Positions 62,526 through 62,841 of a stretch of DNA of 64,000 nt are shown here, piece by piece. The first letter of the stretch is position 1; the number at the start of each line of letters is the position of its first letter. The DNA is from Escherichia coli. Its GTDB lineage: Bacteria > Pseudomonadota > Gammaproteobacteria > Enterobacterales > Enterobacteriaceae. The notes under the pieces are model-generated. The model was not told the DNA's origin. It saw only the letters and a list, made by a program, of their open reading frames with translations, and searched no databases. Location: assembly GCF_041886205.1 (NCBI RefSeq), contig NZ_CP169029.1; one strand, given 5' to 3'. A program made the position numbers and the translations under genes.

Positions 62526-62841
62526 AACAACTCCTTAAAAATTGCACCCATGGCAATTGCACGAGCAGTGTTAATGTGGCGATTACGGTATCGATGACAA
62601 CGGGTAAATAAGGTGATGAATATCACACAGGGATTATTAACAAAAGAATTCAAATAACCGCCATGCTATTACGTGTTATTTTTTAATAAGCGTGGTTGTT
62701 TTAAAAACCAGGTTAAAAGCGAGCGGATTATCAAATAAATTCTAACTATATTTTTTTGCCTGTCTGGATCACATAATCCAGATATTTTCCCTGTATGTTA
62801 ATTGCAGTCATGCTTCACACCGTCGTTAAAAAGGAAGACAG

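Follow-up and report, generated by a model that had tools for sequence, protein, structure and literature searches.

The systems closest to the control region treated here are CRP-dependent promoters and the operators of LysR-type transcriptional regulators (LTTRs). The galP1 promoter is a class II CRP promoter, and at melAB, where MelR acts with CRP, a weak CRP site is filled only cooperatively. CRP half-sites are distinguished from those of FNR by a base rule, GTGA/TCAC denoting CRP and TTGA/TCAA (ATCAA) denoting FNR. LTTRs typically contact DNA between about -80 and -25, with an activation-binding site (ABS) expected near -35 in addition to the recognition site. The allantoin regulon has been described as controlled by AllR and AllS, with ArcA added since 2025. 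For the divergent promoters of allD and fdrA (allF), the comparative evidence presented here points to CRP as an unrecognized co-activator of both operons.

We analyzed a stretch of 64,000 nucleotides of Escherichia coli chromosome, referred to as the window. Its segment 62400-62950 is found in 5353 of 5426 complete E. coli genomes, in which the flanking genes are annotated as fdrA and allD; two of the 5361 places matching this segment are plasmid-borne and the others chromosomal, and in a few genomes the region is present twice. Two genes head the divergent operons, both assigned by open reading frame and by match to E. coli genomes:

60858..62525, minus strand, fdrA (allF), first gene of allFGHK
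62842..63891, plus strand, allD, ureidoglycolate dehydrogenase, first gene of allDCE

A scan with the AllD protein, taking one genome per species, yielded 80 loci and indicated that the divergent fdrA–allD order is kept across Enterobacterales. Coordinates were related to K-12 through a K-12-like genome (K-12 coordinate = 609206 minus window coordinate), and published positions in the allF promoter were converted from the allF ATG at 62525.

The initial annotation of this DNA had singled out a palindrome in the intergenic region as a candidate operator for the allantoin regulators AllS or AllR, or for another factor:

62763..62782, no strand, palindrome TCTGGAT-cacata-ATCCAGA (left arm 62763-62769, spacer 62770-62775, right arm 62776-62782), present in Escherichia only; on the predicted allD promoter it covers about -43 to -24

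As a description this was accurate. A repeat search returns the same arms and spacer, the palindrome ends 60 bp before the allD ATG, and the divergent region spans 316 bp and is AT-rich, with a GC content of 36% against 52% in the window. The arms allow no extension beyond 7 bp, and no second match to the motif with fewer than three mismatches was found in the window. Statistically, the palindrome is unremarkable and no better than chance gives. Perfect repeats of this kind, with 7-bp arms at most 10 nt apart, number 64 in the window, 11 having a 6-nt spacer, and at least one such repeat occurs in 27% of simulated 316-bp regions of the same composition (P = 0.27). Variation within the E. coli population is uninformative on this point: the 30-mer around the palindrome is identical in 5296 E. 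coli genomes, at one place per genome (median 1), and this identity carries little weight because the intergenic region as a whole is 98–100% identical within the species. A repeat of the REP/BIME type was rejected, given that the palindrome is single-copy in the window as well as in those 5296 genomes.

Comparison between genera separates the symmetry from the sequence that is conserved. We assembled 46 distinct allD upstream regions from Enterobacterales (Enterobacteriaceae, Yersiniaceae, Erwiniaceae, Morganellaceae, and Budviciaceae) and aligned 17 Enterobacteriaceae intergenic regions, an alignment referred to as A1. The two arms are complementary at seven of seven positions in E. coli and at six of seven in E. 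whittamii, and at one to four of seven, the level expected by chance, in 43 further loci of Enterobacterales; the right arm is missing in Citrobacter, Klebsiella, Serratia, and other non-Escherichia genera. GATCAC[AG], by comparison, is invariant in all 46 loci while its flanks diverge freely. In A1 the element reads GATCACA throughout, comprising the end of the left arm and the start of the spacer, and four conserved islands stand out from otherwise freely drifting sequence. The element, which is the third of these islands, and the first and fourth are as follows:

62613-62627, GTGA-N6-TCAC(A), island 1 of A1, corresponding to the Footprint-seq CRP site described below
62767..62773, plus strand, GATCACA, invariant core; it consists of GA plus TCACA, a half-site of CRP type on the promoter-proximal side, and covers about -39 to -33 on the predicted allD promoter (allDp)
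62793-62799, GTAT..T, island 4 of A1, followed by a conserved leader up to the allD ATG

Outside the order, the GATCACA element was not found upstream of allD in Wohlfahrtiimonas, Photobacterium, or Firmicutes. On balance, and with slightly better than even confidence in the reading as a whole, we propose that the palindrome is a lineage-specific coincidence over a conserved activator site and is not itself the functional unit. Its right arm would fall into an unconstrained stretch between -35 and -10 (about -30 to -24) and would complement the left arm by chance, in Escherichia alone.

Could the whole 20-bp palindrome nevertheless serve Escherichia as the operator of a dimeric regulator, be it an aerobic repressor, SoxS, or OxyR? 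The dyad is perfect over 7+7 bp, identical in the 5296 E. coli genomes and nearly so in E. whittamii. The allD promoter is silent aerobically, without an identified regulator, and PRODORIC predictions place a SoxS site at -237 (center, about 62762) and an OxyR site at -224 relative to the allF ATG, adjoining or overlapping the left arm (PMC12535856). Against such an operator stand the chance-level frequency of comparable repeats and the loss of the right arm in every other genus, although anaerobic use of allantoin is common to them; moreover, deletion of soxS or oxyR produced only a small change in allF'-lacZ expression, which the authors judged indirect (PMC12535856). To our knowledge, no E. 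coli consensus matches TCTGGAT-N6-ATCCAGA. We regard an Escherichia-specific operator, whose regulator would overlap the -35/-10 spacer as well as the activator site, as very unlikely.

Placing the conserved element relative to the allD promoter depends on a second conserved feature. TAnnnT occurs exactly 20 nt downstream of TCAC[AG] in 44 of the 46 loci, and any other offset is seen in zero to three of them:

62794..62799, plus strand, predicted allD -10 hexamer TATGTT, at the fixed 20-nt gap of 44/46 loci; GTAT..T invariant in A1

From this conservation and the fixed 20-nt spacing we predict that TATGTT is the allD -10 hexamer and that transcription starts near 62806, giving a conserved leader of 36 nt. 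Given the predicted start, the gap between GATCACA and the -10 hexamer would put the center of the site near -40.5 or -41.5; with 20 nt at allD, versus 21 nt at allF and galP1, it would be -40.5 unless the start shifts by one.

An assignment of the core promoter to the palindrome itself, with CATAAT (62772-77) as the allD -10 and a start near 62784, appears quite improbable. CATAAT agrees with TATAAT at five of six positions, and in the orthologous hexamer, CAWWWT, the A at position 2 is invariant and the T at position 6 is present in about 70% of cases. Its first position, however, is always C and never T, no plausible -35 can be read from the sequence 16–18 bp away, and a promoter scan returned no plus-strand promoter here. 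The assignment would also leave unexplained both the TAnnnT at +20 (44/46) and the invariant GAT upstream. Among other promoter types, a sigma-54 promoter was rejected on reading the sequence, in which the GG of CTGG lacks a GC at the 10-nt distance. A promoter-like match on the minus strand (CAGACA, 16 nt, TAGAAT) was set aside, since it would put the AllS and ArcA fragments discussed below downstream of the allF start.

The inverted repeat might alternatively act as a hairpin, either as a plus-strand terminator or attenuator or as a stabilizing 5' stem-loop of the allD mRNA. The palindrome folds at -10.9 kcal/mol (z = -4.7), ATATTTTCCC comes after it, and a terminator scan flagged 62761-62784. 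The stem contains only three G-C pairs, the T-run is weak, and the fold is lost in related genera: the corresponding Citrobacter sequence adopts a different fold of -3.6 kcal/mol, and that of Klebsiella reaches 0 kcal/mol. Variation between genera is not compensatory, the right arm simply differing, and no Rfam family matches the palindrome. In addition, transcription is predicted to begin only downstream of the palindrome, at about 62806, and there is no upstream plus-strand gene to terminate. An RNA or DNA hairpin is thus extremely improbable. A further pairing, of CTGTCT (62760-65) with AGACAG (62836-41), was set aside as well; it is available in some species only, and it lies upstream of the predicted start.

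How does GATCACA compare with established CRP sites? For this comparison we used a position weight matrix (PWM) derived from 39 independent Footprint-seq sites, with the site on the allF side of the intergenic region left out. That site provides the nearest reference:

62610..62629, no strand, full CRP site aaGGTGAtgaataTCACAca, occupying the class II position, -41.5, in the promoter predicted for allF (fdrA)
62585..62590, minus strand, predicted allF -10 hexamer TACCGT, with a predicted allF start near 62578

Table 1 of a 2026 Footprint-seq preprint contains a previously unknown CRP site, tgTGTGAtattcaTCACCtta, bound in vitro with a Kd of 9.8 nM, assigned to allD/fdrA and centered at NC_000913.3 position 546586 (PMC12871828); by the K-12 coordinate conversion it maps to 62610-62629. 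The same table includes no entry for the allD half-site. In our matrix the allF-side site scores 18.8 bits, ranking first among 63,981 window positions. It reads TGTGA-N6-TCACC in E. coli, and its GTGA-N6-TCAC is invariant across the orthologs compared. On the minus strand, TGTGA-N6-TCACn is followed by TAnnnT after 21 nt in 30 of 33 loci and after 20 nt in the remaining three. The allD and allF promoters are accordingly mirror images, each with a TCAC-type element 20–21 nt from its -10 hexamer and, in the region from about -80 to -55, an A/T-rich box. The allF-side site and the allD half-site share the intergenic region, the TCAC half-site type, the distance to the -10, and the taxonomic range; they differ in that the former is a complete palindrome, 146 bp away and serving allF, whereas the latter is a single half-site. 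The distance from center to center (62619.5 to 62765.5) is 144–146 bp in Enterobacteriaceae, Serratia marcescens, and Providencia, and 150–152, 157, or 167–168 bp in other genera.

At allD, GGATCACATA attains 12.3 bits, the maximum being 13.7, and is the best half-site in the 64-kb window, and the base specific for CRP is present in 46 of 46 loci, which carry TCAC and not the FNR-type TCAA. As the proximal half of a dimer site, it would define the following footprint:

62756..62775, no strand, would-be CRP dimer footprint with TCACA as proximal half, center 62765.5

In E. coli this full site has a score of 1.3 bits, made up of -11.0 for the left half and 12.3 for the right, and ranks 230th in the window, as compared with at least 10 bits for all 39 training sites (range 10–22). 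A TGTGA-N6-TCACA dyad with both halves is absent from allD; there is no partner half, and the distal GCCTG shares none of its five positions with TGTGA. Orthologous distal halves score better than background (median -4.9 vs -11.7 bits) and usually better than that of E. coli. Total scores of the orthologs have a median of 7.5 bits and range up to 15.0, and those of Rahnella, Atlantibacter, and Providencia (13–15 bits) lie inside the 10–22-bit range of bona fide sites. An FNR site was rejected in view of the N6 spacing of TGGAT-N6-ATCCA in place of N4, the CRP-type C at the conserved base, and the lack of conservation of the right half.

The layout at allD resembles that of galP1, which reads TCACA, 21 nt, TATGGT, with the poor distal half TTTAT and a PWM score of 9.4 bits. 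Both promoters have a perfect TCACA facing the promoter, a poor distal half, a TAnGnT -10, and no usable -35. They differ in the gap between TCACA and the -10 (21 nt at galP1, 20 nt at allD) and in the distal half, which is worse at allD (-11.0 vs -0.4 bits), where CRP use and the start are predictions. With melAB, allD would share the combination of a pathway-specific upstream activator, AllS, and a CRP-type site too weak alone, although cooperation at allD is inferred, AllS is an LTTR and not a member of the AraC family, and the CRP-type site at allD overlaps the -35 region. According to the authors of the Footprint-seq preprint, the weakest of their sites rest mainly on one half-site (PMC12871828), and K. 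pneumoniae CRP binds the allS promoter according to a paper citing Xue 2016. A literature search for CRP ChIP or SELEX data on allD, or for allD expression in a crp mutant, yielded nothing useful.

Taking these comparisons together, we lean toward the view that GATCACA is a deeply conserved class II activator element at about -40 of allDp, which is probably a cAMP-CRP half-site and would work with AllS. It would thus represent a conserved, un-annotated half-site in the allD promoter, with occupancy by CRP deduced from sequence comparison. In the mechanism we propose, cAMP-CRP would recognize the one near-perfect half-site, GGATCACATA, which CRP alone should bind weakly, and would be held at allDp through contact with RNA polymerase, through AllS sitting on the A/T box near -70, or through the two together. 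From such weak unaided occupancy, and the resulting need for RNA polymerase and/or AllS, it would follow that allDp depends jointly on AllS and CRP. The GA that precedes TCACA is invariant at allD, whereas the corresponding positions vary at the allF-side CRP site; being tighter than at ordinary CRP sites, this constraint could also reflect a different protein.

AllS is the leading alternative occupant. It is essential for allD expression (Rintoul 2002, as reported in citing papers), and published binding data for it are available from the study of the allF promoter by Kim & Kim 2025 (PMC12535856), in which a PRODORIC-predicted AllS site is centered at -181 from the allF ATG, or about 62706. 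Two stretches are relevant to its location:

62669..62728, AllS gel-shift fragment allFp-203/-144, shifted by lysate of AllS-over-expressing cells (PMC12535856)
62726..62746, plus strand, A/T box GATTATCAAATAAATTCTAAC, island 2 of A1 and strongly conserved there, covering about -80 to -60 on the predicted allDp

The gel-shift fragment ends 35 bp before the palindrome, and none of the fragments with demonstrated protein binding includes the palindrome, which is centered at -247.5 relative to the allF ATG. Across A1 there is little conservation in the stretch 62669-62728, where the predicted and gel-shifted AllS site lies. The A/T box resembles the motif of the AllS paralog AdnB/YdhB (TsttwTCAAwAwwwTTGaaGGCA), and because of this likeness we consider 62726-62746 a better candidate for the recognition site of AllS, a LysR-type protein. 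Strong conservation is seen in two boxes, at 62632-62658 and 62726-62746, both of which start with GATTAT(C/T)AA and occupy the region between about -80 and -55 of the two predicted promoters; these two may be the real AllS recognition sites.

If AllS bound the A/T box near -70 as a tetramer that also reached GATCACA, the latter could be its ABS, and CRP would have no part at allDp. We judge this rather unlikely. In its favor are the requirement for AllS in allD expression, the position of the element at about -35, within the usual contact range of LTTRs, the similarity of the A/T box to the motif of AdnB, and a weak likeness between ATCACATAA (62768-76) and ATCAAATAA within the A/T box (62730-38). 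An ABS is normally less conserved than the recognition site, however, and here the reverse is seen, with GATCACA invariant and the A/T box drifting (ATCAAATAA, ATTAAATAA, TTCAACGAA); nor does the C of TCAC ever turn into the A of a TCAA-type box. Furthermore, the only AllS-bound fragment published for this region does not include GATCACA, and the AllS-dependent allF promoter has, at the equivalent position, a full CRP palindrome bound by CRP at about 10 nM. That GATCACA and GTGA-N6-TCAC remain constant while the A/T boxes drift between families is what would be expected for a universally conserved global regulator, and this returns us to CRP as the more plausible ligand of the half-site.

The palindrome as a whole shows little of a LysR-type operator. 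What it has in common with such operators (recognition site plus ABS, T-N11-A) is where it lies, between -80 and -30, ahead of an LTTR-dependent promoter and between two divergent genes. It differs in that, instead of a conserved imperfect dyad, it has a dyad confined to Escherichia, with a 7-6-7 geometry centered between two bases, unlike T-N11-A; the LTTR-like box at 62726-46 sits 36 bp further upstream. For AllR, a member of the IclR family, we took the operator as TTGGAAAAAT(A/T)TTCCAA from the two regions known to be under its control, allS–allA and gcl, in a K-12-like genome. The palindrome shares with it an inverted TGGA...TCCA, although with N8 in place of N7 spacing and without the inner A/T tract. 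A search of the window for TTGGAAAAAWWTTCCAA returned no match at three or fewer mismatches, and AllR was excluded because no AllR box is present. Kim & Kim predicted no AllR site in the intergenic region, and deletion of allR left expression unchanged from an allF'-lacZ reporter, which covers one of the two promoters (PMC12535856).

The operator proposed in the initial annotation can be assessed on this basis. That the palindrome marks a regulatory region, and overlaps a real cis-element, is borne out, but a symmetric operator for either allantoin regulator is not. AllR has no box in the window and no effect on allF'-lacZ, and for AllS the dyad is lost outside Escherichia and the fragment bound by the protein (62669-62728) excludes the palindrome. 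The comparison with published AllS and AllR data that the annotation had called for thus places AllS binding elsewhere and finds no AllR site predicted here. Its fallback, another factor, fits best, the conserved half resembling a CRP half-site, although in a form without the symmetry that had been suggested. More generally, an eye-catching symmetric feature need not be the conserved feature, and similar caution applies to the published AllS site, whose region is poorly conserved while other boxes nearby are strongly so.

What would a CRP layer mean for the regulon? We put at slightly less than even the prospect that the allDCE and allFGHK promoters are both class II CRP-dependent across Enterobacterales, with the allDp half-site filled only with the help of AllS and/or RNA polymerase. 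If so, anaerobic scavenging of purine nitrogen would be gated by carbon status (cAMP) in addition to AllS and ArcA, a layer missing from current regulon models; because the allF promoter is laid out in the same way, around a CRP site that is complete, both oxamate-branch operons would be linked to carbon status. The analysis also provides a promoter map for both allD and allF, with a -10 hexamer, a predicted start, an activator element near -40, and, further upstream, an A/T box. In the published gel shifts, ArcA lysate shifted allFp-142/-83, that is, 62608-62667; these experiments were done with crude lysates, and EBNA protein served as their sole negative control (PMC12535856). The fragment 62608-62667 holds the complete CRP site at 62610-62629, bound at about 10 nM, and CRP in the lysate could have contributed to the shift ascribed to ArcA. 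CRP control of allF, if real, might therefore explain part of that shift.

Several additional features of these loci were observed. On the allF side, AATTGCAC occurs twice, 15 bp apart, around CCATGG (AATTGCACCCATGGCAATTGCAC, 62540-62562), 15–37 bp upstream of the fdrA/allF ATG and inside the predicted allF leader. The pair is near-invariant in most Enterobacteriaceae of A1, and a terminator-like match on the minus strand (62567-62545) overlaps it; it could represent a structure of the leader RNA or a site for a protein. Within the GATCAC element, the GATC, which is the site of Dam methylation, does not vary in any of the Enterobacterales examined. In the Proteus loci (L024-L031, L036, L042, L051, and L053), fdrA was not found adjacent to allD; the Proteus allD upstream regions contain GATCAC[GA], followed after 20 nt by TAAATT or TACATT, with a second GATC 4 nt further on (GATCACGGCAGATCC). 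Two records labeled "Sporobacter termitidis MAG" (L011) and "Chryseobacterium sp. 18061" (L012) contain fdrA–allD loci of the Enterobacteriaceae type, with AllD 83% identical to that of E. coli; the second is nearly identical to the locus of Citrobacter sp. 18056 (L009), and mis-binning or contamination of both assemblies is likely. Finally, in E. coli GCEC19 (NZ_CP137765.1, locus L084), an IS1 element is inserted inside the palindrome, at the equivalent of 62770-62778, flanked by a 9-bp target duplication (cacataatc). With the insertion in place, about 0.8 kb comes between the allD -10 hexamer and both GATCACA and the upstream A/T box, so that GCEC19 represents a natural promoter-disruption allele of allD.
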